From Alphaproteobacteria bacterium (GTDB lineage Bacteria > Pseudomonadota > Alphaproteobacteria > SP197), in NCBI GenBank assembly GCA_965207785.1, contig CBDBNO010000012.1:187808-251807 (forward strand): a DNA stretch of 64,000 bases, given 5' to 3'. Shown piece after piece: positions 1,194 to 41,555 of the stretch; position 1 is the stretch's first letter; each line of letters opens with the position of its first letter. The position numbers were made by a program, and so were the translations under genes. The notes under the pieces are model-generated. The model was given only the letters and a program-made list of their open reading frames with translations. It made no database searches and had not been told where the DNA came from.

Positions 1194-1262
1194 TGCAATA
1201 TTCCTGCACACTTGACGGTGATTCCTGGAACACTTGACGGCGAATCCTGCCGCACTTGACGG
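1194..1262. repeat. IS right-end (istB-distal) terminal repeat array, 3 copies of CACTTGACGG
   Basis: CACTTGACGG occurs at 1208-1217, 1231-1240 and 1253-1262, spaced about 22 bp apart. Multiple terminal repeats are typical of the IS21 family. Confidence 0.85.
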
Positions 1263-1597
1263 CTGAGGTGGCGCCATCTTCGTTCCCTTGTGCGCGTCTT
1301 GGGAGACCTCCCTGTTGGTTGGTTGGGTTGCTGGCCGGAGGCCAGCCGGGTGCGAGCGTATGCGAGCCATTTCTTCCATTCAACAGCCGGCGAACGCGGC
1401 GGCTGGCCCTTTCCTGAGGCATGGCCGCCGCGCGTTCCGGTCCTGGGAACGGCGCCCAGGCGCCGCAGGCGCCCATGGACCCGGCCGCCAGGCCGGGCTC
1501 GCTTGAGGGACCGTTGTCGGGAGGCGGCAACGCGAGAAGGCCGACCTGATGGTGCCGGGTGCCGGTGACGTTACCGCCCTCAACGGAGTTCTGCGGG

Positions 1598-1888
1598 TCA
1601 TGTGTCACGCCCGTAACCGAGCGGCGGATCGAGGTCCTCGAGGGTCTCGATGTCGGCCTCGGCCATGGCCTGCAGGCGCTCCCCGTAAGGGGTGTCGTGG
1701 AGCGTATCGGGAAGGGCGTCGAGGCAGCGGCGCCAGTGCTCCTGCAGGGCGATGAGTTCGGCCAGAGCATCGCGCCAGCGTTGCGCGCGCGAGCGCCGGT
1801 CCCGGGGCTTTCGGGTGATGACGGGACGGTGCCCGGCCTTGAGCCGTTCGCGGTATCGGCGCTGCTTCTCGGCGGGGGTCAGGGCCAT
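1598..1888 (-). CDS. Passenger ORF inside the IS, 96 aa, basic N-terminus and acidic C-terminus, unknown function
   Basis: The ATG lies 13 nt after the istB TGA, with a GGGGAG ribosome-binding site 7 nt upstream. Translation: MALTPAEKQRRYRERLKAGHRPVITRKPRDRRSRAQRWRDALAELIALQEHWRRCLDALPDTLHDTPYGERLQAMAEADIETLEDLDPPLGYGRDT. Confidence 0.55.
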   Translation of the reverse strand: MALTPAEKQRRYRERLKAGHRPVITRKPRDRRSRAQRWRDALAELIALQEHWRRCLDALPDTLHDTPYGERLQAMAEADIETLEDLDPPLGYGRDT

Positions 1889-1901
1889 GGCGGATCTCCC
1901 C

Positions 1902-2654
1902 TCATGCACCGCCCAGGGGCGGCGGCCGGTTGCGCTTGCGCTGGGATTCGCCGGTGATCTCGATGCGGTAGGCATTGTGGACGATGCGATCGAGGATGGC
2001 GTCGGCGATGGTGGGTTCGGCGATCACCCTGGGCCAGTGCTCCACGGGGATCTGACTGGCGATCAGCAGCGAGGCCCGGGCGTGGCGCTGCTCGACGATC
2101 TCGAGCAGGTCGCGGCGGCTCTCGGCGGAGAAGTTCTGCAGACCCCAGTCGTCGAGCAGCAGCAGCGAGACCCTGGCGAGCCGCCGCATGAGCCGGTAGT
2201 GCGTTCCCCTGTCGCGGGCGCGGGCGAGTTCGGAGACGAGTTCGGGCACGCGCCGGTAGAGCACGGATACCTTCTGGCGGCAGGCCTGATGAGCGAGGGC
2301 ACAGGCCAGGAAGGTCTTTCCGGATCCTGTTGGTCCGACGATGATCAGGTTGAAGGCCTGGCGGATCCAGTCGCCGGCGGCGAGTTCGGTCAGCGTGGTG
2401 CGCGTGATGCCGCGGCCGGCACGGCAGTCGACATCCTGGAGATCGGCGCGGATGCGCAGCTGGGCCTGGCGGAGGTGGCCGAGGTAGCTCTTGTGATCGC
2501 GGTACTGGACCTCGCGTTCGATCATCATGGCGAGGCGGTCGTCGAAGTCGAACTGATCGATGTCGGCGATGTCGCGCTGTTCCTCGAGGGCCTCGACCAT
2601 GCCGACGAAGCCGAGTTGCAGCAGGCGTTCGACATTGGGTTGACGCAGCGTCAT
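1902..2654 (-). CDS. istB: IS21-family helper ATPase IstB
   Basis: 250 aa with Walker A IIVGPTGSGKTFLACALA and Walker B LLLLDDWG. It overlaps the istA stop by 4 nt. Confidence 0.95.
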   Translation of the reverse strand: MTLRQPNVERLLQLGFVGMVEALEEQRDIADIDQFDFDDRLAMMIEREVQYRDHKSYLGHLRQAQLRIRADLQDVDCRAGRGITRTTLTELAAGDWIRQAFNLIIVGPTGSGKTFLACALAHQACRQKVSVLYRRVPELVSELARARDRGTHYRLMRRLARVSLLLLDDWGLQNFSAESRRDLLEIVEQRHARASLLIASQIPVEHWPRVIAEPTIADAILDRIVHNAYRIEITGESQRKRNRPPPLGGA

Positions 2655-4246
2655 GGGGTGTCTCCCTGGTTGTTGTCACGGTAGTAGTCCCCGCCCCTGA
2701 TGTTGCTGTGACGGGGGATGGTCTCGCGGACTTCCGGGCGTGGCGCCGGCGTCGGGATGCCGTTCCTGAGGCGCTCCCGGAGGAAGCCCGAGGCGAGGCG
2801 GTTGAGGTCGAGAGCCTCGCCACAGAGCGCCTCGAGGCGATCGGCGCCGTGGCCGTCGGCGAGACGGATCATGCCCTGCACGGTGGCGAAGGCCTGTTCG
2901 GGGAAGTCGCGGGAAGCGAAGCAGCGCTCGGCCCAGGCGAGGGCATGAGGTCCGATGCGCCGGGCCTGGGAGAGCAGGATGTTGCCCCAGTCGGGCTTGC
3001 GGATGTCGCGCACCGCCCGGAGGCGGTCGGGCATGTGTTCGGGGCTTGTGGCGTACTGGTTGGTGCCGCTCTTGAGACGGTGCACGGCGATGCGTTCGCC
3101 CTCCCTGGCGACGAAGATCTCGACCATGCGTTCGCCGACGCGGACGTCGACTTCGGCGCCGATATGGCGTTCGGGCGCGGAGTAGTGGTTGCTCTGGATT
3201 CGGACATGGCTGTTGGGTCCGACCTTGCGTTCGATCCATTCGCCCCATTCCCAGGGGTCCCGGGGCAGGGGCTTGAGAGCGGCCCGCTCGCTGGCCTCGA
3301 AGAGGTCGCGCCGGGTCGCGCCGCATGCCATCGGCGCCTCGTTCAGCTGTTCGAGCTGGCGCCGGATCGCGGCGTTCATGGCGTCCAGAGAGAAGAAGGT
3401 CTGATGACGCAGCGCGAGCAGGATACGCGTCTGGACGACACCGACGGCGGCCTCGACGGGGCCCTTGTCGGTGGATCGCCCCTTGCGTGCCGGAAGCACG
3501 GCGAGATCGTAGTGTTTGGCGAACTCGCGGAAGCTGGGGTTGAGCTGGGGATCCTCGCGGTCCGCCCTGGTGACGCCGGCCTTGAGGTTGTCGATGACCC
3601 AGCGCTCGGGACAGCCGCCGAACGCCTCCAGCGCCCGGCGGTGGGCCATCGTCCAGTATCGCACGCTCTGGTCGGGCACCGCCTCGGCGTGGATCAAGTT
3701 CGAATGCGCCAGCACGGCCACGAAGATCTCCACATCCTCATCGCCGCGGCCGCTCCTGAGGCTCAGGGTCTTGCCCGAGAAGTCGGACATGCCATAGAGG
3801 CCCGGCGCGTAGTCGAAGCGCGCCTGCGCCTGCCCGGGCCGTTCCTGCCGGCGCTTCTTGAGGAGCCCGCAGAAGCGGCTGTAGGTGTAGGCCCTGCCTC
3901 CTTGAGCCAGGGCCTCGTCGCGGTACTCGGACCACAGCTGACGACGCGTCAGGCGGGCGCGGCGGCGATCGCGCGGCGCCTCGAGTTCCTCGATGATCGC
4001 CTCCCAGTCGGGCTGCACCCGGTCGCTGTCGCGATCCGCCGCCGGATAAAGCCGGGCCCGCAGTGTGCCGTCGTCGAGATCCTCTGGCAGCGGCCAGGAA
4101 AGGCCTGCCGCCTCGCTGCGGGCCAGCACGTGCGAGACGGTTCCCGTGCTCACCCCGACCGCCACGGCGATCTCGTCCCGCGACAGGGCGTGATCGTGAC
4201 GGTGCCGAAGAATGTCCTTGATGTTCATCATGCCGATTCTCTTCAT
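2651..4246 (-). CDS. istA: IS21-family transposase IstA
   Basis: About 530 aa. It has an N-terminal HTH (ISRDEIAVAVGVSTGTVSHVL) and the DDE integrase core (DFSGKT...VLAHSNLIHAE...). The start is taken at MKRIGMMNIKDIL. Confidence 0.9.
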   Translation of the reverse strand: MKRIGMMNIKDILRHRHDHALSRDEIAVAVGVSTGTVSHVLARSEAAGLSWPLPEDLDDGTLRARLYPAADRDSDRVQPDWEAIIEELEAPRDRRRARLTRRQLWSEYRDEALAQGGRAYTYSRFCGLLKKRRQERPGQAQARFDYAPGLYGMSDFSGKTLSLRSGRGDEDVEIFVAVLAHSNLIHAEAVPDQSVRYWTMAHRRALEAFGGCPERWVIDNLKAGVTRADREDPQLNPSFREFAKHYDLAVLPARKGRSTDKGPVEAAVGVVQTRILLALRHQTFFSLDAMNAAIRRQLEQLNEAPMACGATRRDLFEASERAALKPLPRDPWEWGEWIERKVGPNSHVRIQSNHYSAPERHIGAEVDVRVGERMVEIFVAREGERIAVHRLKSGTNQYATSPEHMPDRLRAVRDIRKPDWGNILLSQARRIGPHALAWAERCFASRDFPEQAFATVQGMIRLADGHGADRLEALCGEALDLNRLASGFLRERLRNGIPTPAPRPEVRETIPRHSNIRGGDYYRDNNQGDTP

Positions 4247-4374
4247 CGCGCTCTTGCCTTCCGGTTCGATACGCGAACCGGTCTGACAGGGATGGAAGAG
4301 ACAGGGCACCTCGGAGATCCCGCTGGCCGCCTCGCCACGCCGCTCGGCAGGGCAGGGTCAGGCTCGGACCAGGA

Positions 4375-4485
4375 CCGTCAAATGCTCAGGATTCGCCGTC
4401 AAGTGTCCAGGAATCACCGTCAAGTGTTCCAGGAATCGCCGTCAAATGTCGTAGGAATCGCCGTCAAATGCGCCAGGATTTTGCA
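4375..4485. repeat. IS left-end (istA-proximal) terminal repeat array, 5 copies of CCGTCAA[A/G]TG
   Basis: Copies sit at 4375, 4396, 4417, 4439 and 4461, at 21-22 bp spacing. They are the reverse complement of the 1208..1262 array. Confidence 0.85.
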
Positions 4486-5000
4486 AACGCGCCACCGATG
4501 AGCGGTCCACTGAGCGCGGAGGCCGTCCATGTCAGTGAAAGACATGCAACAACTCTGGGTACGAGTCGATCCGGGAAGAAGCGGTTCTGGGCGATGAAGA
4601 CCAGGGCGACCAACGCTCCGCCGCCGAGTCCCTGCACCGTGCGGCCTGCAAGCAGGACCGGCATCGCCGGCGCCGCCGCGCACGCGATGCATCCGAACGT
4701 GTAAAGCAGCGTCGAAGCCAGCATGGCACGGCGCAGCCCGGCCCGCGCCACGAAGGCGCTCGCCGCCGCTGCGGCCATGACCGAGCCCATCAGGTAAAGG
4801 GCAAATGCCCAGCTGATGAGGCGCAGACCGCCGATATCTCCGATCGCCTCCGGGAGGGTCGTCGCTGCCAGCAACGTGTTGGCCGCATGCAACCAGATCG
4901 CCAGGCACATCACGAGCAGCAGGGGCAGGTGCCGGCGCGCCACCACCTCGCGCCAGCTGACGGACTGCGGATCCGGACCCGGCCGCGCGTTCTCCTGCAT
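4486..5000 (-). pseudogene. MFS-type transporter gene, 5' fragment (TM1-TM5), interrupted by the IS21-family element
   Basis: Translation MQENARPGP...LLLVMCLAIWLHAANTLL... shows MFS motif A-like VARAGLRRAML and TM4 motif RTVQGLGGGAL. It is transcribed divergently from soxR. Confidence 0.7.
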
Positions 5001-5041
5001 GGCGATTCTCCCGTTGCGATGCGCCTGAAGGTGATGCTAGA

Positions 5042-5061
5042 ACTTCAAGTAAACTTGAAGT
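5042..5061. promoter_or_regulatory. SoxR box (8-4-8 palindrome ACTTCAAG-TAAA-CTTGAAGT) in the soxR/transporter divergent promoter
   Basis: This is a perfect inverted repeat in the 68-bp intergenic region. It resembles the canonical CCTCAAG-TTAA-CTTGAGG soxbox. Confidence 0.75.
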
Positions 5062-5068
5062 CAAGCCC

Positions 5069-5551
5069 ATGCAGACCACGCGTTGGCAGAAAACCAGCCT
5101 CTCGATCGGCGACGTCGCCCGACGCACGGGACTCGCCACGTCGGCGCTCCGCTTCTACGAGGAAATGGCGCTGATCGAGTCGCTGCGCACGCCGGGCAAT
5201 CAGAGGCGCTATGCGCGTGACGTGATTCGACGGGTTTCGTTCATCCGTGCCGCGCAACGGGTGGGCCTGACACTCGAGGAGGTGCGCGCAATGCTCGACG
5301 ACCTGCCCGCGGGCCGGTCCCCGACCCGCCGGGACTGGCAGGAGCTTGCAAGACGCTGGAAACCATGGCTCGACGAACGGATCGCCGCCCTCGAACGCTT
5401 GCGGGACCAGCTTTCGTCATGCATCGGTTGCGGCTGCCTGTCGCTCGACAGCTGTGCTCTCTACAACCGCGGTGATGCCGCCGGCCGCCTGGGCCCCGGT
5501 CCGCGTTACCTTCTGGGCGATTCTCCTGAGGATCTCCAGACCCGGAATTGA
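5069..5551 (+). CDS. soxR: Redox-sensitive MerR-family transcriptional activator SoxR
   Basis: It has a MerR HTH (IGDVARRTGLATSALRFYEE) and the C-terminal [2Fe-2S] cysteine motif CIGCGCLSLDSCALYN. Confidence 0.9.
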   Translation: MQTTRWQKTSLSIGDVARRTGLATSALRFYEEMALIESLRTPGNQRRYARDVIRRVSFIRAAQRVGLTLEEVRAMLDDLPAGRSPTRRDWQELARRWKPWLDERIAALERLRDQLSSCIGCGCLSLDSCALYNRGDAAGRLGPGPRYLLGDSPEDLQTRN

Positions 5552-5618
5552 GCGAAAAGTGCATGGTGGAGCCCGCGCCCTCACGGACGACTGTCGCTCT
5601 CATCCTGGTGAGACCGGC

Positions 5619-6008
5619 TCAGGGGTCGGGCGGAAGGAACGAGCTTTCGTCGCGCAGCGAACAGCGGTTTCCGTCCGGGTCGACGAAGTCGCCGACGGTT
5701 CCCCAGGTCTCCCGTCTGACGACGACGCGCACGCCGCGCGCCTCCAAAAGACGGGCGGCAGCATCGACATCGGCAACGTTGAACCTCAGCTTGACCGGGC
5801 TTTGCTCGATGGATCGCCCGCCCGGCATCGCCGTTCCGCCGGTTTCGACCATCAGGTAACTCCCGCCCATGTCCAGGCAGGTCAGCGTGGAATGCTCGTC
5901 ATCGAGCGAGAACATCTCCGGCAGTCCCAGAATCCGGCGGTAGAAGTCGACACACTCTTCGTACTGCTCGGTGAACACGATGACGCCGCTTCGCTTCAGG
6001 TCCATCAT
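5619..6008 (-). CDS. VOC-family protein (glyoxalase / bleomycin-resistance-like), 129 aa
   Basis: The single-domain VOC pattern (...CVDFYRRILGLPE...LRFNVADVDAAARLLEARGVRVV...GDFVDPDGNR...) is present. It lies in the lower-GC islet. Confidence 0.7.
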   Translation of the reverse strand: MMDLKRSGVIVFTEQYEECVDFYRRILGLPEMFSLDDEHSTLTCLDMGGSYLMVETGGTAMPGGRSIEQSPVKLRFNVADVDAAARLLEARGVRVVVRRETWGTVGDFVDPDGNRCSLRDESSFLPPDP

Positions 6009-6234
6009 GGACTTCTCCCTGTCCCCGCCTCCGCCACTCGCCCCTGATTCGTCCGGACGCGGTTGACGCCTCCTGCGTCCCTCAGACGCTCAAGGATCCT
6101 CATCTGCCATCACTGATCCACGACCGCGCCGTTCTGCCGCTGCCGTATGCGAGACTGGCATTCCCCGGCAGACACGGCCCAATTCGCCTCGGGGCGAAAC
6201 CAACTGCGTTTCACCGAAATGAGAAGTGAACGAC

Positions 6235-6636
6235 TCAAGATGGCCGATGGGATGCGGCGCGCCGGACGCGAAAGATCGAATGGGCAGTAGCGGTCCGTAG
6301 CGTGGATACACGTACCCGGCGATCTCGGTGGTGGAAAGTGAAGTCGTCGATGCATGCATGCGAAATGAATCCGCCGTCAATGTCCCCCGCCGTGCCGTCC
6401 CGCATCGCCTGGGACAGGAAACGGGCGATGCGCTGCGTAAGGCTTTGGTTGGTTCCGGTTCCCTCGCCGCCCAAAGGAAGTGTGCGGACAAGATTGTGAT
6501 TCGGATACTCCTCGGCAAAGCGTATGGCGATCTGATACGCAGACATGAACGGGCGGTCGAGAGGGTGATCGGCTTCGTACTCTGGACAGCTCGCCAGAAT
6601 CCGGCGCAGATGATCAATATTGAAGTCGCGTCTCAT
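6235..6636 (-). CDS. Hypothetical protein, about 105-133 aa, no recognisable family
   Basis: The ORF is MRRDFNIDHLRRILASCPEYEADHPLDRPFMSAYQIAIRFAEEYPNHNLVRTLPLGGEGTGTNQSLTQRIARFLSQAMRDGTAGDIDGGFISHACIDDFTFHH... The C-terminal roughly 30 codons are Arg-rich and may not be real. A competing frame (6090..6617) overlaps it. Confidence 0.4.
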   Translation of the reverse strand: MRRDFNIDHLRRILASCPEYEADHPLDRPFMSAYQIAIRFAEEYPNHNLVRTLPLGGEGTGTNQSLTQRIARFLSQAMRDGTAGDIDGGFISHACIDDFTFHHRDRRVRVSTLRTATAHSIFRVRRAASHRPS

Positions 6637-6698
6637 TGGGAGTCAGTCAAGGTTCCTGCGAGGGAGACGCAGTCTACCCGAACGTGTTCTTGAACCGA

Positions 6699-7451
6699 TC
6701 AACGAATAGCGTTCCGGCGACGAGAGCGCTTGCGGAATCTGCACTCCTCGCGGAGAAAGCACCTTCGGCAGTTCGGCTTCGTCTTCTTACAGGTGGACTT
6801 TCCCAAGCGAAAGAGCTGGGCGTCGAGCTTCCATGACCCCTGAGGCATCATCTCCCTTGCGATGTCGAGAGCGGCCTCTGCGGTGACCATGTTGCCGGTG
6901 AAGACGCGGCCCAACACTCTTCGCACATGGATGTCCGCCTTGAGTTCACCGACCCCTTCAATCTGCTTGGTGTCATAGAGTATCCCGGCGGTCATCCGGG
7001 AAATCTGCGGTCCTACCCCCATCCGTTCGAGTCGCTTCTGAGTCACGCACGAGGATTGGTTCGTCCAGATGTTGCGAGCATCACCGCCATATCGCTCTAC
7101 GATTTCCCTGCCGATTCTCTGGACGCGGGCATGTGCAGCAGGGAACCGGTGGAGGTTGTGGCGACGACGTACCGTCAGGGTGTTCCACCTGCGAATTCCA
7201 ACGATCTCATCCCACAGATCACGCGGATCACCAAGATCGTCCTCGGCAAAACGACGGGCATTTTCCCAAACCAGGCCGACCCTCATCTGATAGTCGAGGA
7301 TGCACCCGAGCAAGAACTTGTTGGCTGACCGCTTGTCCGCCCGGCGGCCATTCAGACGGGAGAGGAAACCTGTGTGCATGGGGGGCTGCCTGCGACGCTC
7401 TTTGCGAATCAGCTTGCGAACGCGCTTGCACTTGGGGCTGCTTGGTTTCAT
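6699..7451 (-). CDS. Endonuclease III-like HhH-GPD DNA glycosylase with a [4Fe-4S] cluster loop and a Lys/Arg-rich N-terminal tail
   Basis: The Fe-S cluster loop CKKTKPNCRRCFLREEC has C-x6-C-x2-C-x5-C spacing. The HhH region reads GVGPQISRMTAGIL, and the catalytic Asp is kept in ADIHVRRV. The N-terminal tail is MKPSSPKCKRVRKLIRKERRRQ. The start has a GAAGGAAG ribosome-binding site. Confidence 0.75.
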   Translation of the reverse strand: MKPSSPKCKRVRKLIRKERRRQPPMHTGFLSRLNGRRADKRSANKFLLGCILDYQMRVGLVWENARRFAEDDLGDPRDLWDEIVGIRRWNTLTVRRRHNLHRFPAAHARVQRIGREIVERYGGDARNIWTNQSSCVTQKRLERMGVGPQISRMTAGILYDTKQIEGVGELKADIHVRRVLGRVFTGNMVTAEAALDIAREMMPQGSWKLDAQLFRLGKSTCKKTKPNCRRCFLREECRFRKRSRRRNAIR

Positions 7452-7599
7452 GGTCACTTCCTTCAGTGTGGGCTGCGTGGCACTGCGACCCAAGATGCTG
7501 AGATCCTGGATGACTCACTGTGTAGAAATCTGGATATGGTAGGACGGGGGCGTTCGGGCATGCCAATTCGTCTGGGGGCTGGACGAGGCGTCCCTTCGC

Positions 7600-8058
7600 T
7601 CAGCGTCGCTGATATTCTCTGATCTTGCGGAAGGCCCCGGTCGTGGGGACACGATAGGCGAACCAGTCTGTCCTCATGACTTCGCGTTGTTCATCCCTGT
7701 AAGACTTGCCGTCCCTAACCAGGACGTGGTCGCCTGGGGCTCTTGTCTCCTGCCTGATCACAATGCTGTTCAGCGTCGGAAGACCGTTCACCCGGCAATA
7801 TTCTCCGACGATCCCCAACGGAATCCCCAAGGTGACTCCCGCCTTGGGATCCATTCCCATTCTTTTCGCGAGCTCACCGTAGGTGATGAGCACGTCTTTC
7901 CGTCGGCGAGGTGGCCGGGGTTCGTCTCGCCATTTCCATTCCTTCATGACGTGGGCCGTGAGGATCATCCAGACGCGTTGTGCCTGCACGTGCCGCCGGT
8001 CGCCGATACCAAACTCCTTAGCTTCAGGAACGGTGATGTCTCTCATTGTTTGAGCCAT
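7600..8058 (-). CDS. MGMT/Ogt-fold (alkyltransferase-like) winged-helix protein lacking the PCHR active-site motif, 152 aa
   Basis: ITYGELAKRMGMDPKAGVTLGIPLGIVGEYCRVNGLPTLNSIVIRQETRAPGDHVLVRDG aligns to the MGMT C-terminal domain (VSYGQLA...GAARAVGAA..NPISIVVPCHRV..G..GY). PCHRV is replaced by IRQET. The ribosome-binding site is GGAGAAAG. Confidence 0.55.
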   Translation of the reverse strand: MAQTMRDITVPEAKEFGIGDRRHVQAQRVWMILTAHVMKEWKWRDEPRPPRRRKDVLITYGELAKRMGMDPKAGVTLGIPLGIVGEYCRVNGLPTLNSIVIRQETRAPGDHVLVRDGKSYRDEQREVMRTDWFAYRVPTTGAFRKIREYQRR

Positions 8059-8345
8059 TTTGCTTTCTCCGTGCAATATTGCACATCTTGCGCTACATTG
8101 CACGAAGAATCAACCCATTGGCGTGATCGTCCGATATTCGTCTACCCGGTGGGAGAGACCGCAATACATGGCAGCCGGGTTGGCGGCGATCGGAGCCAGA
8201 CTCTTGATAGCCAAATAGGGCTGCCCTGCAGTCGATGACTATCATCCGGTTCGTGATGTGTTGGGTTCTGTCCGAAGGCCCGGAACAAGGCCAATGGAAC
8301 GGCGGTGCGGCGTGTTGCCGACGACACATCCGGGCCCTGGCCTGA

Positions 8346-11300
8346 TCAACCGGCGCTGCTGACGCGTTGTGGCCGGCGCACGTCTTGAGACGCGGCGCTG
8401 CGGAATGCGACAAGAGCCTCGACCTCGGCGGCGCGGGCCCTGGCGATGGCTTTGGCCTTGACATGACCAAAGCCGCGAATCTGCGAAGGGACGTTGGCAA
8501 GGTCCACGGCGGCGGCATGGTTCGCGGGGGTCAGTGCGACAACAACCTCGTTCATGCGATCGAAGTAGTCGGAAATCAGCCGGCGTTCCTCGCGCCGTTC
8601 GCGCTGCCAGCCAAAGGGATCGAGAACGCTGCCACGCAGCCGCCGCATGGCCGCAAGGCAGCGAAACACCACGAGGATCCAGCCACCGAACGTCCGTTTC
8701 ACCCGGTGGCCGGTCACCGGGTCGCGATGCGAGATCAACGGCGGCGCCAGGTGGAGCTGCAACCTCGGTTTGCCCTCGAAGGTTTCCTGCAGTCTCTTCG
8801 CGAATGTGCCGTCGACATAGAGCCGCGCCACTTCGTACTCGTCCTTGTAGGACATCAGCCTGAAGGCCTGGCGGGCGACGGCATCGGCAAGCTCGTCCCT
8901 GCCCGGCGTCAGCCTGCGTTCGGCATCCGAGACGCGATGGACAAGATCCAGGTACCGCTCGGCCCACGAACGGTCCTGCCAGGACGCGAGGAAGGCGGCG
9001 TAGCGTTCCACGAGCGCCTCACCGGTGTCCTGGTCTTCCTCCGCCGACGCCAGATTGCGGACCGCCGCCATGTCATGGGCCGCATGCCGTCCCAGGAGCA
9101 CGGCCTGCCTGTTGGTCTCGACGGCGACGCCGTTGAGTTCGATGGCCCTGTCGATGGCGTGACCCGGGAGCGGCAGAAGGCCCCTTTGCAGGGCATAGCC
9201 GAGCATGAAGAGATTGGCAGCAATGCCGTCGCCGAGCAGACTTCTGGCGAGGCGTGTGGCATCGACGACGTGCATCGCCGCGCTGCCGACCGCGTCCTCG
9301 AGGGCTTTCTCAAGGGCCTCAAGCGGATACTCGAGATCGGGGTCGAGGGCAAAGGCGCCCGTCATCGTCATCTCGGTGTTGACGACGGCCGTGGTCGTGC
9401 CGGGCGCCAGTTTGCGGAGCGTGTCCGGCGCCGCCGCTGTGACCATGTCGCAGGCCAGCAGCAGGCGGGCCCCGCCGTCGGTGATGCGCGGCGCGTGAAG
9501 CTCGCCGGGAGACCTGGCGATTCGGATGTGACTGACCACAGCACCGCCTTTCTGGGCCATGCCGATCATGTCGAGAACCGTGACACCGTTGCCTGCGACA
9601 TGTGCCGCCATGCCGAGAAGCGCGCCGACCGTGACCACTCCGGTGCCGCCAATGCCCGCGACCACGATGTCCCACGGCCTGTCGAGAGGCGCCATGGCCG
9701 GTTGCGGCAGGTGTCCCGACGCCAGGGAATGGAGCGCATCCTTGTTGCTGCGGCGCGGCCGGACACCGGTGACGGTCACAAGAGCCGGACAGAATCCCTT
9801 GATGCAGGACATGTCCATGTTGCACGACGACTGATCGATTTGCCGCTTGCGGCCGGACGGAGTCGCCACCGGAACGATCGCCACGCAGTTCGACTTGAGG
9901 CCGCAGTCGCCGCACCCTTCGCACACCTCCTCGTTGATGATGACACGCTCCAGAGGAATCGGCAGGGTGCCGCGCTTGCGACGCCGGCGCTTCTCGGCAG
10001 CACAAGTCTGGTCGTAGATGAGAACCGTAAGGCCGGGAACCTTCGCCAGGGCACGCTGGACCAGCTCCAGGTCGTCGCGATGATGCACCGTGCAGCCCTG
10101 TGGCCAGCGCGTCTTCGCCGGGTACTTCGCCGGATCGTCGGTGACGACACGGATCTCCCGTGCCCCCTCCGCCGCCACCTGGCGGGCGATGCGGGGCGGA
10201 CTGACATCAATGTCGGCGCTCTGCCCGCCGGTCATCGCAACGGCATCGTTGCACAGGATCTTGTAGGTCATGTTGACGTTTGCCGCCGCGGCCGCGCGGA
10301 TCGCCAGCAGGCCCGAGTGGCTGTAGGTGCCGTCGCCCAGATTGACGAAGACATGGTCCGTGGCAACGAACGGAGCCTGTCCGATCCACGAGGCGCCTTC
10401 CGCGCCCATGTGCGTGAAGGTTGCGGTGTTCCTCCCCATGCCGAGCGCCAGGTAGTGGCAGCCGATGCCGGCCAGGGCCCGGCTTTCCGGGGGCACCCTG
10501 GTCGACGTGTTGTGCGGGCAGCCGGCGCAGAAATAGGGCGTGCGCTCGAGAGGTGGCGGCTCACCGGCAGGGACTGGCTGATGGCGGGCACGGAACCCTT
10601 CGGTGAAGGTCGTGGAACCGGTGAGCGCGTCGAGACGGGGCGCGATGATGCGGGCGATTGCTGACGGATCCAGCTCGCCATCCGACGCCACGAGAGGTGC
10701 TCCCGCAGGGTCATGCTTGCCGCTCACGCGTGGCCGGTGCGTCGCCGGCAGATGATAGAGAGCCTCCTTGATCTGGGTTTCCATGAGAGCGCGCTTTTCC
10801 TCGATGACGAGGATGTCCTCGAGACCCGTGGCGAACTCTTCGAGACCTTCCGTCTCCAGGGGCCACGTCATGCCCACCTTGTAGAGACGCAGGCCGACAG
10901 CCCCCATGGCGGCATCGTCCAGTCCGAGATCATCCAGCGCCTGGGCCAGATCAAGCCAGGACTTCCCGGCCGCCACGATGCCAAGGCGCGCCTGGTGGCT
11001 GCCTCCGACGATTCGGTCGAGACGGTTCGCCCGGGCAAAGGCCCTGGCGGCGCCGAGCTTGTGGTTCTGCAGGCGCTCTTCCTGGCGCATCGGCTCATCG
11101 GGCCAGCGGATGTTGAGTCCGCCGGCCGCCGGGTCGGCAGAGGGAGGTACGGCAACCGGCCGATCCGGCACGAGTTCGATCGACGAGGATGCATCGAGGT
11201 TGTCGGCCGTCGTCTTGAAGCCGATCCAGCATCCCGAATGGCGGGACATTTCCATGCCGATGATTCCGAAGTCGAGAATCTCCGCCACGCCGGCCGGGTT

Positions 11301-11813
11301 GAGAACCGGAATGCCGGCGGCCACGAAGGCCTGCTCGCTCTGGTGCGGCAGTGTCGAGGACCGGCAGCCGTGATCGTCGCCGGCGATCAGCAGTACTCCG
11401 CCATGCCTCGCCGATCCGGCCAGATTGCCGTGTCTGAAGGCATCGCCGGAACGGTCGACTCCCGGTCCCTTGCCGTACCAGTAGGCGAACACCCCGTCGT
11501 GACGGGCGTCATCGAACAACTGGGCCTGCTGGCTGCCCCAGATGGCCGTCGCCGCGAGATCCTCGTTGATGCCCGGCTGGAAACGGATGCGGTGTTCTTT
11601 CAGGTGTTCCGCGGCGCGCCAGAGCTGCTGGTCATAGCCGCCGAGGGGGGAGCCGCGGTATCCGGAAATGAACCCGGCGGTGTCGAGCCCCGCCCTGGCG
11701 TCGCGCCGGCGCTGCTCCATGGGCAGGCGGACCAGCGCCTGGATGCCCGTCAGGTAGACACGCCCTTCTTCAAGGACGTACTTGTCATCGAGGCTGACCT
11801 CGCCTTGCGGCAT
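8346..11813 (-). CDS. Indolepyruvate ferredoxin oxidoreductase family protein (fused alpha/beta, about 1155 aa)
   Basis: It has the TPP-binding and 2x[4Fe-4S] motifs (CEGCGDCGLKSNC...CIKGFCP) and the N-terminal LDDKYVLEEGRVYLTGIQALVRLP typical of the IOR family. Confidence 0.85.
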   Translation of the reverse strand: MPQGEVSLDDKYVLEEGRVYLTGIQALVRLPMEQRRRDARAGLDTAGFISGYRGSPLGGYDQQLWRAAEHLKEHRIRFQPGINEDLAATAIWGSQQAQLFDDARHDGVFAYWYGKGPGVDRSGDAFRHGNLAGSARHGGVLLIAGDDHGCRSSTLPHQSEQAFVAAGIPVLNPAGVAEILDFGIIGMEMSRHSGCWIGFKTTADNLDASSSIELVPDRPVAVPPSADPAAGGLNIRWPDEPMRQEERLQNHKLGAARAFARANRLDRIVGGSHQARLGIVAAGKSWLDLAQALDDLGLDDAAMGAVGLRLYKVGMTWPLETEGLEEFATGLEDILVIEEKRALMETQIKEALYHLPATHRPRVSGKHDPAGAPLVASDGELDPSAIARIIAPRLDALTGSTTFTEGFRARHQPVPAGEPPPLERTPYFCAGCPHNTSTRVPPESRALAGIGCHYLALGMGRNTATFTHMGAEGASWIGQAPFVATDHVFVNLGDGTYSHSGLLAIRAAAAANVNMTYKILCNDAVAMTGGQSADIDVSPPRIARQVAAEGAREIRVVTDDPAKYPAKTRWPQGCTVHHRDDLELVQRALAKVPGLTVLIYDQTCAAEKRRRRKRGTLPIPLERVIINEEVCEGCGDCGLKSNCVAIVPVATPSGRKRQIDQSSCNMDMSCIKGFCPALVTVTGVRPRRSNKDALHSLASGHLPQPAMAPLDRPWDIVVAGIGGTGVVTVGALLGMAAHVAGNGVTVLDMIGMAQKGGAVVSHIRIARSPGELHAPRITDGGARLLLACDMVTAAAPDTLRKLAPGTTTAVVNTEMTMTGAFALDPDLEYPLEALEKALEDAVGSAAMHVVDATRLARSLLGDGIAANLFMLGYALQRGLLPLPGHAIDRAIELNGVAVETNRQAVLLGRHAAHDMAAVRNLASAEEDQDTGEALVERYAAFLASWQDRSWAERYLDLVHRVSDAERRLTPGRDELADAVARQAFRLMSYKDEYEVARLYVDGTFAKRLQETFEGKPRLQLHLAPPLISHRDPVTGHRVKRTFGGWILVVFRCLAAMRRLRGSVLDPFGWQRERREERRLISDYFDRMNEVVVALTPANHAAAVDLANVPSQIRGFGHVKAKAIARARAAEVEALVAFRSAASQDVRRPQRVSSAG

Positions 11814-11973
11814 GAGTGGAGGACCGCTTGCTTGGAGGGGTGAACGCCGTTCACCATAGCGGCCATGGACCATGCCGGCGAGTCACGATTGACCGTCCCG
11901 GGAGTGTAGCCTTCGGCGGGGAAGTGGACTAAAGAGGCGGGATCAGACCAGACCTGCCTGTGAGGAATCCGCC

Positions 11974-13362
11974 ATGACCGTCATCCCCAACTCTCCCCAC
12001 GCGCGCGATGCCGCAACCCTCATCCACCCCTATTCCAACCTGGTGGTGCACGAGAAGGAAGGTCCTCTCATCATCGAGAAGGGCAACGGCGTCCATGTCG
12101 AGGACCTCGAAGGCAACACCTACATCGAGGGACTCGCCGGCCTGTGGTGCACCTCGCTCGGTTTCAACAACGAACGGCTGGTGGAGGCAGCGGCGGCGCA
12201 GATGCGCAAGCTCCCCTACTACCACGCCTTCTTTCACCGCTCCTCAATGCCGTCCATCGAGCTGGCCGAACGCCTGATCGCCATGTCACCGGCGCCGATG
12301 GCGCGTGTCTGGTTCGCCAATTCCGGTTCCGAGGCCAACGACCATGCAGTGAAGTTCGTCTGGTACTACAACAACGCCCGCGGCAAGCCAGAAAAGAAAA
12401 AGATCATCGCCCGCCTCGGCGGCTATCACGGAATCTGCGTGTCGTCGGGCAGCCTCACCGGCATTCCGCTGATGCACCAGGGCTTCGATCTGCCGATCGC
12501 CAACATCATGCACACCGGGTCACCACACTGGTACCACGAAGGCCTGGAGGGTGAATCGGAAGAGGACTTCGCGACCCGAAGGGCCGAGGAACTCGAGCAG
12601 ATGATCCTTGCCGAGGGACCCGAGACCGTAGCCGCCTTCATCGCCGAGCCCGTCATGGGTGCTGGCGGCGTCATCGTGCCGCCCGCCGGCTACTTCGAGA
12701 AGATCCAGGCCGTCCTGGCGAAGTACGACGTGCTGATGATCGCCGACGAGGTGATCTGCGGATTCCACCGCACCGGCCAGCTGTTCGGTTCCAACACCTA
12801 CGGCATCAAGCCCGACATCATGGTCGTGGCCAAGCAGCTCTCCTCGGCCTACCTGCCGATCAGTGCGGTGATCATCAACGAGAAGGTCTATGGACCGATT
12901 CGCGACTTCTCCGACGACAACGGCGTGTTTGCGACAGGTTTCACCTATTCGGGCCATCCCGTTCCGGCAGCGGTCGCCGTGGAGACCCTGAAGATCTACG
13001 ACGAAATCAACATTGCCGATCATGTCGCCAGGATCGCGCCGGTGATGCAGGAGCGACTCATGGCTCTCGCCGATCATCCGATCGTCGGCGAAGCCAGAGG
13101 CGTTGGTCTCATCGGAGCGGTGGAGCTCGTCAGGGACAAGGGGACCCGGGAGAACTTCCCGCCGGCCATCGCCAACTACTGTGGCGAACGGTGCCTTGCG
13201 CATCGCCTCATCGTGAGGGCGGCCGGGGGGAACTCCGTCGCGGTCTGTCCTCCCCTCATCATCGAGGAAGAGCAGATTCACCAGATCTTCGATCGCCTGA
13301 AAGCGGCACTCGACGACACCCTGGACCACGTCCGCCAGGAGAGCCTGCTCGACGCAGCCTGA
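11974..13362 (+). CDS. Class III (omega) aminotransferase, PLP-dependent
   Basis: 462 aa. The aspartate aminotransferase family class III pattern is present (...AEPVMGAGGVIVPP..., ADEVICGFHRTGQLFG, VAKQLSSAYLPISAV). Confidence 0.85.
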   Translation: MTVIPNSPHARDAATLIHPYSNLVVHEKEGPLIIEKGNGVHVEDLEGNTYIEGLAGLWCTSLGFNNERLVEAAAAQMRKLPYYHAFFHRSSMPSIELAERLIAMSPAPMARVWFANSGSEANDHAVKFVWYYNNARGKPEKKKIIARLGGYHGICVSSGSLTGIPLMHQGFDLPIANIMHTGSPHWYHEGLEGESEEDFATRRAEELEQMILAEGPETVAAFIAEPVMGAGGVIVPPAGYFEKIQAVLAKYDVLMIADEVICGFHRTGQLFGSNTYGIKPDIMVVAKQLSSAYLPISAVIINEKVYGPIRDFSDDNGVFATGFTYSGHPVPAAVAVETLKIYDEINIADHVARIAPVMQERLMALADHPIVGEARGVGLIGAVELVRDKGTRENFPPAIANYCGERCLAHRLIVRAAGGNSVAVCPPLIIEEEQIHQIFDRLKAALDDTLDHVRQESLLDAA

Positions 13363-13374
13363 TCATTTGATCAA

Positions 13375-13412
13375 GGGGCGCCCGCTGCGACCGGAAGGTC
13401 AGCGGGCGCCGC
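13375..13412. terminator. GC-rich hairpin between the convergent aminotransferase and oxidoreductase genes (candidate bidirectional terminator)
   Basis: GGGGCGCCCGCTG-(12 nt loop)-CAGCGGGCGCCGCCC forms a roughly 13-bp stem. It overlaps the last codons of the minus-strand gene. Confidence 0.4.
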
Positions 13413-14532
13413 CCAGTCTTGACGGCGACAGGGTCCCGGGATCCAGACCCGCTTCGACGAGATCCGGCGGCAGGCCTTTGCCGAGCATGACGGCGGCGGC
13501 GTAGGCGGAAAGACCTGTGGACGTTTGGATTCCGGCGCCTCCCTGGCCGACATTCCAGAAAAATCCCTCGCATGCCGGATCGAAACCTGTCACCGGCAGC
13601 CTGTCCGGAACGAAGCTTCGCAATCCCGCCCATCGGCTTTCCATGCGCCTGATGTCGAGAGTCGTCCACTCCATGATCCGGTGAGCGGCAAGGGCGAGGT
13701 CCAGTTCCTCGGGCGCGGCATCACAGGGTTCGCTTGGCTGCTCGTCGGCCAGGGAACCGAGCATCAGTCCGGCCTCGGGCTTGAAGTAGAAGCTCTCGCC
13801 ATCATCGGCCACCAGCGGCCAGGCGCCGTGGTCCATGCCGTCCGGCCCCCGGAAAGTGAAGGCGGTGCGGCGCATCGGCACGAGGCCGACCGGTGCCGCC
13901 CCGGCCATGCGGCCCACCACATCGCCCCAGGCGCCGGCGCAGTTGGCCACGATGGGCGCCTCGAGAGTCCTTCCGGGCACCGACACATGCCAGACACCGT
14001 TGCGGCGTTCCATTCCGGAAACCGGCGCCTTGAGGAGCATGGTGGCGCCGGACGCTCGCGCCGCCCTGAGATAGGCTCCATGGATGGCGTGTACGTCGAT
14101 GTCGCCAGCGGCTGGTTCCCAGAGCCCTGATTCGATCTTCTCCGGCTTGAGGACCGGACACCGCCGGAGACATTCATCACGATCGAGTTCGAAGAGCTGG
14201 TGCCCGATTACATGGCTCAGTCCGCGACGGGTGAACGCCGCGTCCCGGGTTTCGGTTCCGAAGAGAAGGAGAACGGGACGTCTCCTGATCAGGGACACAT
14301 CGGTGAACCCTGGCGGCGGGTCCTCGAGAAAGGGTCTGGTGGCGGCGCTGAGGGTCTTGACGACCCCGCCACCGATCACATCGGTGTAGTGGGCTGCCGA
14401 TCGCCCGGTACTGTGATAGCCCGGCTGGTCCTCCGCCTCGACAACCACCACCCTCGCCGATGGCGCAAGACGCCAGGCAAGGGACGCGCCTACCACCCCT
14501 GCACCAATGATGATGACGTCGAATGCGGCCAT
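13399..14532 (-). CDS. FAD-dependent oxidoreductase (DAO family)
   Basis: It has the N-terminal dinucleotide fold DVIIIGAGVVGASLAWRLA and the general architecture of D-amino-acid/glycine oxidase-like flavoenzymes. Confidence 0.8.
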   Translation of the reverse strand: MAAFDVIIIGAGVVGASLAWRLAPSARVVVVEAEDQPGYHSTGRSAAHYTDVIGGGVVKTLSAATRPFLEDPPPGFTDVSLIRRRPVLLLFGTETRDAAFTRRGLSHVIGHQLFELDRDECLRRCPVLKPEKIESGLWEPAAGDIDVHAIHGAYLRAARASGATMLLKAPVSGMERRNGVWHVSVPGRTLEAPIVANCAGAWGDVVGRMAGAAPVGLVPMRRTAFTFRGPDGMDHGAWPLVADDGESFYFKPEAGLMLGSLADEQPSEPCDAAPEELDLALAAHRIMEWTTLDIRRMESRWAGLRSFVPDRLPVTGFDPACEGFFWNVGQGGAGIQTSTGLSAYAAAVMLGKGLPPDLVEAGLDPGTLSPSRLGGAR

Positions 14533-14557
14533 GGTTCCAAGAAGGGGTCCTGCAGAA

Positions 14558-14633
14558 TGGTGCCGAAGGGGAGATTCGAACTCCCGACCTACTGATTACG
14601 AATCAGTTGCTCTGCCACTGAGCTACTTCGGCT
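14558..14633 (-). tRNA. tRNA-Thr (anticodon CGT)
   Basis: The reverse complement GCCGAAGTAGCTCAGTGGCAGAGCAACTGATTCGTAATCAGTAGGTCGGGAGTTCGAATCTCCCCTTCGGCACCA folds as a cloverleaf with a 7-bp acceptor stem, a T-loop TTCGAAT and an anticodon loop TTCGTAA. The CCA end is encoded. Confidence 0.9.
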
Positions 14634-14695
14634 GGGCCACCCGGTCGGGCGGGGAACCTAGTCGCAAGCCGGCGCCATGGTCAATGGCCCAAAGC

Positions 14696-16042
14696 TCACG
14701 ACAGCGTCACGGGTTCGGCCGGTTCGCGTGTTGCCAGGACCGGAGGACGGGCCTCCTCAACGGTGCCCGGACTGCGCCAGACCATGGAGTCGAAACGTCC
14801 GCATGCGTCACAGACAGCACGCCATGTCCGCGTGATATGGCCGCAGCCGTTGCATTGCCAGGTCCTGTCCGGGCTCGCCTCGATCATGCGGACCTGCCAC
14901 TCGGCAGCCTTTTCGGCGTTGTCTTCGGTGGTCTCGAGGTCGACCCACAGACGGATTTCCCGGGGAGCCAGGCCCGAAGCGCCAATGGCGTTGAGATGGC
15001 GTCGCATCTCTCCTGTCAGCCTCGATTCCATCGCCACCCGCGCCGCGGCCACATGAGCTTCCCGGTCATCCTCGTTGAGGTTGAGCAGACGTTCCATGCG
15101 ACGATAGCGGCTGGCCCCTTCATCACTCCAGGCTTCGATGTAGAGATCGGCCAGTTCCGGATGCGGCGCCATCTTCCAGGTTTTCTCGACGACACGGACG
15201 GCCTGGGTTCCCTTGCCGGAGTCAATGAGAATCCGGGCGAGGATGCAGGCCGCCGGCACCAGGTCCGGCGCCTCGCCGTGAGCCGTGCGGGCGAACTTCA
15301 GGGCCTCGTCGCGGCGTCCTTCCTCGTGGGCCCGCACCGCTTCCTCGACCAGCAGGACAGCATGGCGCCGACGTCCCGGTGCGGCCTCGATGACCTTGCG
15401 ATCGCGAGCGGATTTCAGAGTCTGGCGGGCGGCGGTCCAGTCCGCTGCCCTTGTCTGCAACTCGAAGACGGCTTCGGCCGCCCACGCGGCATCGGGTCTG
15501 AGAGCATGGGCCTTGCGCGCATACTCCGCCGCGGCCTCGTGATCGCCCTTCCTCAGGGCCGCCGCCATCAGGCCGCGAAGGCCCAGAAACTCCGTTTCCG
15601 GGCGCTCCAGCATGGCGCGAAAACGTCGGTCCGCCTCCTTGTCGTCCCCGTCGAGCTGGGCGGCCTGGGCCGTCAGGAGCAGGGTGAGCGGTGGCCGGTC
15701 GAGCAGCCTGTCGGCTCTCCTCGCATGGGCCCGGGCGCCCGGGGCGTCGCCGGCCGCCACCGCCACAAGTCCTGACGTCAACGCCTGCCAGCCTTTCTCC
15801 TTGCGCCGATCGCCCAGGGCGAGCCGGATGCGGCGCGGCCCACGCCAGATCCACTGGAGAAGGAGCACTGCAATCACTGACACGACAACGAGGAGAAGGA
15901 TCCCGAGAATCAGGATCGGCGTGTCGGTCGTCACTTCCCAGACATCCCAGACGAAGGTGACGCTGCCCCCGCGATCGGCAATCCACACGATGCCGCCGAT
16001 CACCGCGGCCATGACAATGACGTAGAAGAAGAGAGCGATCAT
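14696..16042 (-). CDS. hemY: Heme-biosynthesis-associated TPR membrane protein HemY
   Basis: It has an N-terminal TM segment, TPR-like repeats and a C-terminal Cys cluster (CNGCGH...CDACG). It is the last gene of the hemC-hemD-hemX-hemY operon. Confidence 0.8.
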   Translation of the reverse strand: MIALFFYVIVMAAVIGGIVWIADRGGSVTFVWDVWEVTTDTPILILGILLLVVVSVIAVLLLQWIWRGPRRIRLALGDRRKEKGWQALTSGLVAVAAGDAPGARAHARRADRLLDRPPLTLLLTAQAAQLDGDDKEADRRFRAMLERPETEFLGLRGLMAAALRKGDHEAAAEYARKAHALRPDAAWAAEAVFELQTRAADWTAARQTLKSARDRKVIEAAPGRRRHAVLLVEEAVRAHEEGRRDEALKFARTAHGEAPDLVPAACILARILIDSGKGTQAVRVVEKTWKMAPHPELADLYIEAWSDEGASRYRRMERLLNLNEDDREAHVAAARVAMESRLTGEMRRHLNAIGASGLAPREIRLWVDLETTEDNAEKAAEWQVRMIEASPDRTWQCNGCGHITRTWRAVCDACGRFDSMVWRSPGTVEEARPPVLATREPAEPVTLS

Positions 16043-38442: not shown

Positions 38443-39111
38443 TCAGGCAGTCTTGACGTTGTCCGGATGGGCGGCCGCAAAGTCTGGCAATCCTTTGCAA
38501 TACTCATTGATTCTTCGAATGTTCGGCCACGCCGCGACGTCGAGTTCCCAGCGCTCCGCGTTGTAGACCTGCGGAACCAAACAGCAATCCGCCAGACCCG
38601 GCGTGTCGGCGTTGCAGCTTCGTCCCGATCGCGGGTCATTCAGCAACGCCTCGACTGCGTCCAGTCCGCGACGCATGAAATGCTGCATCCACGCAATCCT
38701 TGTCGCGTCATCGCCATCACAGACCGTCTGCAGATGATTGACGACGTGCAGATTGCAGATCGGATGAATGTCCATCGCGATGGCATAGGCGATGGTTCTG
38801 ATGCGGGCCCGATCCGCAGGGGCGCTCGGGAGCAAGGGCATGCCTGGCCGCGTTTCATCCAGGTACTCCAATGCGGCCAATGACTGGGTGAATCGCTGTC
38901 CGTCGATGACGAGGACCGGCACGAAGCCCTGAGGATTGCGTTCGATATGGTCGGCGTTTCTGTGAGCTCCGGTTCTCAGGTCAACGTCAAGACTCGTACT
39001 CTCGATGCCCTTCAGTCGCAGGCCAATCCGCAATCGATAACTGGCCGAAGAACGCCAGTAATCGTAGAGCACGGCCTGCGTTGGCGGACCCTCGGCCACG
39101 CTGCCGCTCAT
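38443..39111 (-). CDS. maiA: Maleylacetoacetate isomerase (GST zeta class)
   Basis: It has the N-terminal GST fold LYDYWRSSASYRLRIGLRLKGI and the zeta-class motif. fahA lies in the same cluster. Confidence 0.85.
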   Translation of the reverse strand: MSGSVAEGPPTQAVLYDYWRSSASYRLRIGLRLKGIESTSLDVDLRTGAHRNADHIERNPQGFVPVLVIDGQRFTQSLAALEYLDETRPGMPLLPSAPADRARIRTIAYAIAMDIHPICNLHVVNHLQTVCDGDDATRIAWMQHFMRRGLDAVEALLNDPRSGRSCNADTPGLADCCLVPQVYNAERWELDVAAWPNIRRINEYCKGLPDFAAAHPDNVKTA

Positions 39112-39886: not shown

Positions 39887-39904
39887 CGTCTTGATCCTTC
39901 CCGC

Positions 39905-41539: not shown

Positions 41540-41555
41540 GGTCACGTCCGCCGAC

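Follow-up and report, generated by a model that had tools for sequence, protein, structure and literature searches.

The window analysed here, a 64-kb stretch of the alphaproteobacterial contig CBDBNO010000012.1, carries a horizontally acquired insertion at 6159-8215, between an ancestral VOC-soxR-MFS cluster and an oxidoreductase gene, and this islet of ~2.06 kb consists of three genes, not four. All three lie on the minus strand: P4 (7600-8058; 152 aa), the first gene of the cassette, encodes a stand-alone protein with a predicted MGMT/ATL-like winged-helix core lacking the Cys acceptor; GLY (6699-7451; 250 aa) encodes a divergent HhH-GPD DNA glycosylase, predicted to be monofunctional, with a [4Fe-4S] loop and basic N- and C-terminal tails; and P2 (6235-6636; 133 aa) belongs to a family without a name and is predicted to form a winged helix with a small beta-sheet. 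On balance we lean towards reading the islet as mobile-element cargo, made up of an autoregulated MGMT-like binder, a monofunctional Fe-S glycosylase and a second winged-helix protein that together form no obligate system. What is new here is the palindrome in front of P4, along with unnamed members of known superfamilies; we find no described or demonstrable multi-gene system. The initial annotation, made from the letters alone, had placed four genes on one strand between soxR and the oxidoreductase gene, and four minus-strand open reading frames (ORFs) are indeed found there. The fourth is the VOC/glyoxalase-family gene (hereafter VOC; 5619-6008; 129 aa), which is ancestral and lies outside the islet. 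Gene starts were set by exact-sequence look-ups of annotated products in a collection of 15 billion proteins; the annotated starts give 250 aa for GLY and 152 aa for P4, against maximal ORFs of 264 and 167 aa.

The acquisition is seen by comparing empty and filled sites. In two relatives with ~90% nucleotide identity to the window, L118 (GCA_028821455.1, JAPPGE010000023.1) and L119, the site is empty: the oxidoreductase gene is followed by ~450 bp and then by VOC, soxR and MFS, and P4, GLY and P2 are absent. A blastn search of the window against L118 gave 93.7% identity over 8215-16000 and 89% over 4483-6152, leaving 6153-8214 unmatched; for L119 the identity is 92.9% towards the oxidoreductase gene and ~89% towards VOC, with the same 6153-8214 missing. 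In both relatives ~160 unrelated bases occupy the place where the window has the islet, whose junctions (~6159 and ~8215) were placed by eye. The filled site is found in L117 (Logan SRR23258159), with 92% DNA identity across window 4483-11580 and the gene order of the window (oxidoreductase, P4, GLY, P2, VOC, soxR, MFS), and L117 and L118/L119 diverge from the window to a comparable degree. The same DNA, at 78-84% identity (window 6218/6668-8041/8213), is also found in L001, L006 and L115, where its surroundings are unrelated, and the cassette is a GC trough in L006 as well.

The base composition of the islet is deviant too. GC is 0.57-0.59 across ~6200-8400 and 0.65-0.70 on either flank; with 58.0% GC, the 2,057 bp of 6159-8215 rank first as the lowest among 620 equal-size sliding windows of the 64-kb window (mean 64.8%, standard deviation 2.5). 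GC at third codon positions (GC3) is 0.64 for P2, 0.70 for GLY and 0.67 for P4, thus 10-20 points under that of the neighbouring genes, which have 0.81 (VOC), 0.80 (oxidoreductase) and 0.76 (SoxR), in a flank range of 0.76-0.86. Because the site is empty in L118/L119 and filled in L117, and GC and GC3 deviate, the islet is acquired, as the initial annotation had supposed. Its four-gene islet has to be narrowed to three: since VOC is present at the empty site in L118/L119 and has a flank-like GC3 of 0.81, VOC is ancestral, as an ordinary orthologue at this locus in relatives would indicate, whereas P4, GLY and P2 are absent from that site. Likewise, the GC of 55-58% given for the segment holds for 6159-8215 and not for the full 5552-8345, which has 59.6%. 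VOC and soxR being ancestral, their closeness to the glycosylase gene is an accident of the insertion site.

Do the three genes travel together? P4 and GLY are adjacent in the window and L117, in L001-3/L007 (a Defluviicoccus metagenome-assembled genome, MAG), in L006 (an alphaproteobacterial MAG chromosome) and in L115; besides the window and L117, P4-GLY-P2 occurs in L115, with 78.6% nucleotide identity over window 6218-8041. In every paired locus P4 is at least 78% identical to that of the window, and the DNA is 78-84% identical (92% in L117). Elsewhere the genes are found apart. P4 without GLY is present in L004, L005 and ~22 distinct genome loci from L008-L032, at 40-57% identity, in hosts that include sphingomonads, Devosia, Rhizobium, Photorhabdus, Xenorhabdus and Erwinia; GLY occurs without P4, P2 or VOC at all 80 metagenomic GLY loci (33-55% identity); and P2 stands alone in L116 and L120-L123. 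The neighbourhood conservation of glycosylase and MGMT-like protein that the initial annotation had looked to is therefore confined to close relatives of one cassette (L117, L001, L006 and L115; 78-92% nucleotide identity), with GLY missing at ~24 other distinct P4 loci and P4 missing at 80 of 80 GLY loci; the lack of synteny that was named there as a refutation largely holds. Since the pairing is limited to this narrow clade and P4, GLY and P2 are otherwise found separately, we take the three-gene association to be a single recent linkage event in one element lineage, not an obligate system.

Two loci show the cassette coming apart or changing. In L004 (8001-8640 of a 169-kb contig), P4 and the entire P4-GLY spacer are kept at 79% nucleotide identity to window 7441-8209; the homology ends no more than ~10 bases from the start codon of GLY, beyond which lies an AraC-type gene on the other strand, so that the cassette broke precisely at the gene boundary. 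In L115, tblastn aligns GLY as one continuous segment (9331-10092), and the gene caller splits it over 9331-10621 into a 79-aa fragment, the rest being merged into a 206-aa P2 call; this is either a frameshift or stop in a long-read assembly or a decaying copy. A second P4-GLY-P2 arrangement had been suspected for P0240, P0079 and P0291, each listed on a contig of 6,619 bp, and was rejected, the contig of P0240 (L120) holding P2 alone.

What recurs around P4 is recombination machinery. P4 has a serine recombinase or resolvase gene in its vicinity in L004, L006, L014, L016, L018 and L115, and when the ORFs within 5-6 kb of P4 were clustered over 30 loci, a large serine recombinase (5 loci) was the sole recurrent neighbour, apart from antisense shadow ORFs. 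The same clustering over the 80 GLY loci returned no recurrent neighbour of GLY. Downstream of P4 there is no conserved partner at these loci; the gene found there differs in almost every lineage. A P4 homologue is also carried on 4.8-kb ColE1-type Klebsiella plasmids. On one of them, L124 (NZ_CP084821.1, 4,773 bp), the gene downstream of the P4 homologue encodes a 96-aa protein of five tandem DDRLRTLATFDGKTLK copies, and a radical SAM protein is encoded on the strand opposite the repeat protein (features at 2774-3064 and 1349-2239); the two could be a precursor with its maturase, in the manner of ribosomally synthesized and post-translationally modified peptides.

A further finding is the palindrome GTGCAATATTGCAC (8071-8084), of the TGCA-N4-TGCA type, which lies directly upstream of the P4 ribosome-binding site, between it and a putative promoter; a scan for sigma-70 consensus promoters found none, and terminator-like sites are no commoner than expected from shuffled sequence. 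TGCA-N4-TGCA occurs a single time in the whole window. Of 29 non-redundant loci, 12 have it no more than 100 bp upstream of P4 (L001, L004, L006, L008-L010, L014, L015, L018, L021, L025 and L032; homologues 40-90% identical), against 0.03 expected from its 4 occurrences in the other 401 kb of these loci. The palindrome is retained in L001, L004, L006, L115 and L117, even where the sequence farther upstream is unrelated, and in two enterobacterial loci, L026 (Scandinavium) and L031 (Erwinia), GAACA-N3-TGTTC-type palindromes precede P4 instead. This pattern suggests that P4 is an autoregulated, sequence-specific DNA binder with the palindrome as candidate operator. Autoregulation by P4 is the simplest reading because P4 is the sole constant gene at these loci and the motif varies with the P4 lineage. 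The lesion-recognition scaffold that the initial annotation saw in the MGMT fold does not agree with this, as a palindrome upstream of P4 points to a sequence-specific regulator instead.

P4 itself has no sequence match in Pfam, NCBIfam, PADLOC or PDB. Its family is strongly conserved in an alignment of 31 sequences (VQAQQVW, ITYGxLA, LGIVGxYC, LPTLNSIVV, PG and RVPTTGTFRKVW). When the P4 family was compared by hhalign with a small, approximate MGMT/ATL alignment, the probability was 79.6% (E 1.5e-5). The C-terminal winged-helix/helix-turn-helix (HTH) fold of AGT/MGMT is present in P4; Y60 (I-T-Y-G-x-L-A) is invariant, and hhalign pairs it with the base-flipping Tyr114 of human AGT. The defining AGT/ATL motifs, namely the PCHRV Cys motif, PWHRV and the Arg finger, are those described in PMC10779285. 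P4 lacks the nucleophilic Cys motif (I/V)PCHR(V/I)(V/I), the candidate positions reading LPTLNSIV or PGDHV, and it lacks the ATL motif PWHRV; the sole invariant Cys of the family, C88, sits in the recognition helix. An Arg is aligned to the Arg finger in distant members, and Ile/Pro is found there in the clade of the window (LGIPLGIVG). The gathering score of PF01035 is not reached, with matches in 2 of 31 members (best E 0.09). The P4 core thus appears to be remotely related to the MGMT/ATL winged helix, to lack its acceptor cysteine and to stand outside the AGT and ATL families; the MGMT fold without catalytic residues read earlier is reasonable from hhalign and the missing Cys motif, and membership of those families is not. 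An exhaustive hidden Markov model search gave 980 representative clusters (50% identity) at E<=1e-3, nearly all of them stand-alone proteins of 110-170 aa; among 10 longer proteins, 2 have an extra domain, HARE-HTH, at E ~8e-4, under the Pfam cut-off.

The GLY protein matches EndoIII and MutY chains in the PDB weakly and in its C-terminal half only (E 7e-5 with the single sequence, 4e-6 with the family profile), and its N-terminal half has no sequence match there. The HhH motif and the catalytic Asp are in place: GVGPQISRM...KAD173IHVRRV aligns to LPGVGRKTA...VDTHVERV of EndoIII, KAD173IHV lies on the catalytic Asp in the alignment with Bacillus EndoIII, and D173 is invariant in 35 sequences. 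The [4Fe-4S] loop C-x6-C-x2-C-x5-C reads CKKTKPNCRRCFLREEC, with C221, C228, C231 and C237 nearly invariant; PF10576 matches 4 family members weakly. Lys120 of Nth, the residue of bifunctional glycosylase/AP (apurinic/apyrimidinic) lyases, is replaced by Met153, which is nearly invariant in the family. Because Met153 stands in place of the lyase Lys, we predict GLY to be a monofunctional Fe-S HhH-GPD glycosylase, MutY-like in this respect, of a subfamily without a name. GLY has no match to PF00730 (HhH-GPD) at E<=0.1 and reaches no curated cut-off of PF00730, TIGR01083, TIGR01084 or TIGR03252; the last, an HhH-GPD family that is itself uncharacterised, is the best NCBIfam match in 34 of 35 family members, at ~32 bits against a cut-off of 136.5, and we found no mention of it in the literature. 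At E<=1e-3, over 200 proteins belong to the family, and the small number of named ones come from Acidobacteriota, Nitrospirota, Clostridia and Methanococcoides. An EndoIII-like enzyme with a basic tail, as first described, is borne out by the weak EndoIII/MutY matches, with basic tails at both ends that are confined to the close clade.

P2, which the initial annotation called an unplaceable protein of 105-133 aa, is a real gene product of 133 aa (86 homologues, 1 of them identical), and it stays unplaceable by sequence, with no family assigned in profile searches. Its structure model (predicted local distance difference test 89) shows a winged helix of generic type, to which a small sheet is added. 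Where it occurs without P4 and GLY (L116 and L120-L123), it lies in L116 beside an integrase and two toxin-antitoxin pairs.

We propose the following course of events. Most likely, 6159-8215 is a cargo fragment of a serine-recombinase-type integrative element, and this fragment would have entered, by recombination, the intergenic stretch that separates the oxidoreductase gene from the ancestral VOC-soxR-MFS cluster. P4, GLY and P2 would be independent, separately mobile units. P4 most likely binds its own upstream TGCA-N4-TGCA and thereby represses itself, and it probably also represses read-through into whichever gene lies downstream. GLY would flip out and excise a base that is damaged or modified, host AP-endonuclease repair would take over at the abasic site left behind, and P2 would be a winged-helix protein carried along in the cassette.

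Several observations weigh against this account. The islet has no integrase or transposase within 6159-8215, and no target-site duplication or terminal or flanking repeats at its junctions. P4-GLY moves as a unit through four contexts with different flanks each time, and the order P4-GLY-P2 recurs in L115 at a mere 78.6% nucleotide identity; some functional coupling would agree with this. A host factor, and not P4, could be what binds the palindrome. Moreover, the HTH of AGT-type proteins normally binds the minor groove without sequence specificity (PMC10779285), so that specificity in P4 would be a departure for the fold. Finally, P4 proteins with a C-terminal extension that weakly matches HARE-HTH exist (P0035 and P0025), and the gene of P0035 (L005, 8001-8714) adjoins that of an Mrr_cat nuclease; a HARE-HTH P4 beside an Mrr-type nuclease gene hints at DNA-modification biology, and it is the sole sign that ties P4 to modification-dependent restriction.

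Other explanations have to be weighed against the cargo reading. First, P4 may be a repressor, like a C protein or an antitoxin, of a potentially harmful downstream gene, here GLY, on a mobile element, in which case the coupling would be regulatory only. The palindrome between the putative promoter and the ribosome-binding site of the first gene, P4, fits such a controller; diverse genes follow P4 in different lineages, and in L004, where GLY was replaced, P4 and the spacer are retained as far as the start codon of GLY. However, 148 bp separate P4 from GLY, several loci lack a plausible same-strand gene after P4, and GLY stands alone without P4 in most genomes and thus needs no controller. We consider this unlikely, though it fares best among the alternatives.

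Second, the islet may be a mobile cassette for the repair of alkylation or genotoxin damage, in which P4 flags adducts like an ATL, GLY removes alkylated or bulky bases, and VOC and SoxR add tolerance to bleomycin-type or redox-active drugs. The top structural and profile matches of P4 are MGMT C-domains, and Y60 is invariant. AlkA-type alkylpurine glycosylases belong among the HhH-GPD enzymes. AGT/ATL-EndoV fusions show that the fold can be coupled to excision enzymes (PMC10779285). Yet P4 has neither PCHRV nor PWHRV, its Arg finger is not conserved in the clade of the window and PF01035 is not reached; an operator-like palindrome precedes it and mostly unrelated genes follow it; VOC and SoxR pre-date the cassette, their adjacency being accidental; and GLY sides with the Nth/MutY/TIGR03252 branch, not with AlkA. 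We hold this possibility to be slightly more doubtful than the controller.

Third, the three genes may form a base-excision restriction module, in which a modified base in DNA entering with a phage or plasmid is sensed by P4, and perhaps P2, and is cut out by GLY, so that replication is blocked at the abasic sites left behind, in a type-IV-like manner analogous to Brig1-3. Such a module has some points in its favour. The cassette is mobile, and some P4/P2 neighbourhoods are of mobile or defence type, with a WYL regulator and an AAA ATPase, an Mrr-type nuclease, HepT/MNT, BrnT, HigB, recombinases and integrases; one P4 lineage is fused to HARE-HTH; and a GLY without the lyase Lys would leave abasic sites intact. 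Defence by a glycosylase alone does exist in Brig1/2/3 (PMC13160076). On the other hand, the searches for defence and phage associations returned little. PADLOC-DB 2.0 gave no significant match for VOC, P2, GLY or P4 at E<=0.1, its sole entry (HEC-01B against P2, E 0.031 over 19 residues) being at chance level, and the matches of P4/P2 neighbours are generic only (WYL domain, AAA domain). P4, GLY and P2 have no match in PHROGs, and tblastn with P4 found none in phage records, which is neutral for or against defence; in IMG/VR viral contigs GLY has no match and P4 has one, a duplicate of the Photorhabdus locus L022. At 80 loci GLY stands alone, no mobile or defence gene recurring beside it, and its spread over bacteria and archaea resembles that of a housekeeping repair family. 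In addition, the P4 pairing is limited to one clade, and Brig enzymes have the UDG fold, not HhH-GPD. A restriction module is therefore improbable in our estimate, a little more so than a repair cassette. Its strongest form is that P4 is a cysteine-less MGMT-fold sensor controlling or guiding GLY, that P4-GLY(-P2) is the first HhH-GPD base-excision restriction cassette and that P4 alone serves elsewhere as a portable regulator or sensor; we give it less credence still. The DNA-modification-sensing defence or genotoxin-tolerance module suggested by the initial annotation is improbable rather than refuted, as none of these results speaks positively for it.

Last, it is very improbable that all four genes belong to the ancestral core of this lineage and that the dip in GC is local noise: the same layout stands at the same place in L117, but L118/L119 are empty at equal or closer relatedness, the same cassette occurs in unrelated contexts and GC3 is low by 10-20 points, so that an ancestral origin is refuted for P4, GLY and P2 (empty site, foreign contexts and GC3) and true for VOC only.

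The ancestral neighbours have features of their own. VOC matches Pfam Glyoxalase (PF00903) with E 1.8e-10 and 41.7 bits against a cut-off of 20.6, and its matches to the FosA and YaeR models are far under their cut-offs, too low to assign a subfamily. The soxR gene (5069-5551, plus strand; Pfam MerR, MerR_1 and MerR-DNA-bind) belongs to the MerR family, and the right flank is an indolepyruvate/2-oxoacid:ferredoxin oxidoreductase-type gene (8346-11873, minus strand; Pfam POR, DUF6537 and TPP_enzyme_C). L117 and L118 share the soxR-MFS layout, and the oxidoreductase gene is syntenic in L117, L118 and L119. A perfect SoxR-box-like palindrome, ACTTCAAGTAAACTTGAAGT, lies at 5042-5061 in the 68-bp divergent soxR-MFS intergenic region, which fits an ancestral SoxR-MFS(-VOC) unit responding to redox-active compounds. 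In the window, an IS21-family element (1194-4482; IstA 2651-4309 and IstB 1902-2654, both on the minus strand) interrupts the MFS transporter gene divergent from soxR, and 928-1193 and 4483-5000 are the two halves of the MFS gene that is intact, with 503-506 aa, in L117/L118. As the MFS gene is split by IS21, the probable SoxR-controlled pump is disrupted in this genome. A link between the islet and IS21 was considered and rejected, IS21 being a separate insertion. The sole match of an Rfam scan, a Glutamine-II riboswitch at 6183-6235 on the minus strand (21.8 bits, gathering score 33, E 0.035), sits at the islet's left edge, immediately 3' of the stop codon of P2, and is probably a chance hairpin. 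Farther away, 38443-41791 is the second-lowest GC stretch of the window (~59%); by a by-eye reading of translations, its ORFs resemble GST-zeta/maleylacetoacetate-isomerase, a VOC-type ring-cleavage dioxygenase and an FAD monooxygenase, and it looks like an aromatic-catabolism cluster.

The islet opens no long-standing question, and its cargo comprises three unnamed protein families. P4 flags a large family of MGMT-like proteins, small and without the cysteine, that are carried by plasmids and integrative elements with a conserved palindrome ahead of the gene; sequence-specific binding there, if confirmed, would be an unusual role for the MGMT fold. GLY flags a widespread uncharacterised Fe-S HhH-GPD family in bacteria and archaea, to which TIGR03252 is nearest.

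How do these genes compare with known systems? The alkA-ogt/ada adaptive-response operons pair an HhH-GPD glycosylase with an MGMT-fold protein, as P4-GLY does; here, however, the MGMT-like P4 is catalytically dead by its motifs, GLY is Nth/MutY-like and not AlkA-like, and the adjacency is found in one narrow cassette lineage. With the Nth/MutY branch GLY shares the HhH motif, the catalytic Asp and the [4Fe-4S] loop, its best NCBIfam match being TIGR03252; it differs from that branch and from TIGR03252 by sub-cut-off scores, by Met in place of Lys120 of Nth and, in the close clade, by the basic tails. P4 resembles the C proteins of restriction-modification systems and BrxR/CapW-type regulators in being a small DNA-binding protein that is encoded first, with a palindromic box at its own gene, and that is followed by a variable gene on mobile DNA; those regulators have an Xre HTH or winged HTH-WYL fold, whereas P4 is MGMT-like and many P4 genes have no obvious partner. 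From MGMT/Ogt/Ada-C and ATL proteins P4 differs in having neither PCHRV nor PWHRV, no conserved Cys at that place and no conserved Arg finger, and in having an extra N-terminal helix and the conserved C-terminal RVPTTGTFRKVW segment; AGTs bind the minor groove non-specifically (PMC10779285), whereas the lineage-specific palindrome upstream of P4 suggests sequence-specific binding. Finally, the anti-phage glycosylases Brig1, Brig2 and Brig3 belong to the UDG superfamily, and their example shows that one glycosylase encoded on mobile DNA can act through the abasic sites it makes, Brig3 working with an accessory gene of its operon (PMC13160076); for GLY, neither defence-island enrichment nor a PADLOC match was found. 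As their fold is that of UDG and GLY is an HhH-GPD protein with an Fe-S cluster, GLY is at most an analogue of them and not a relative; if GLY does target modified phage DNA, glycosylase-based immunity would extend past the UDG fold.

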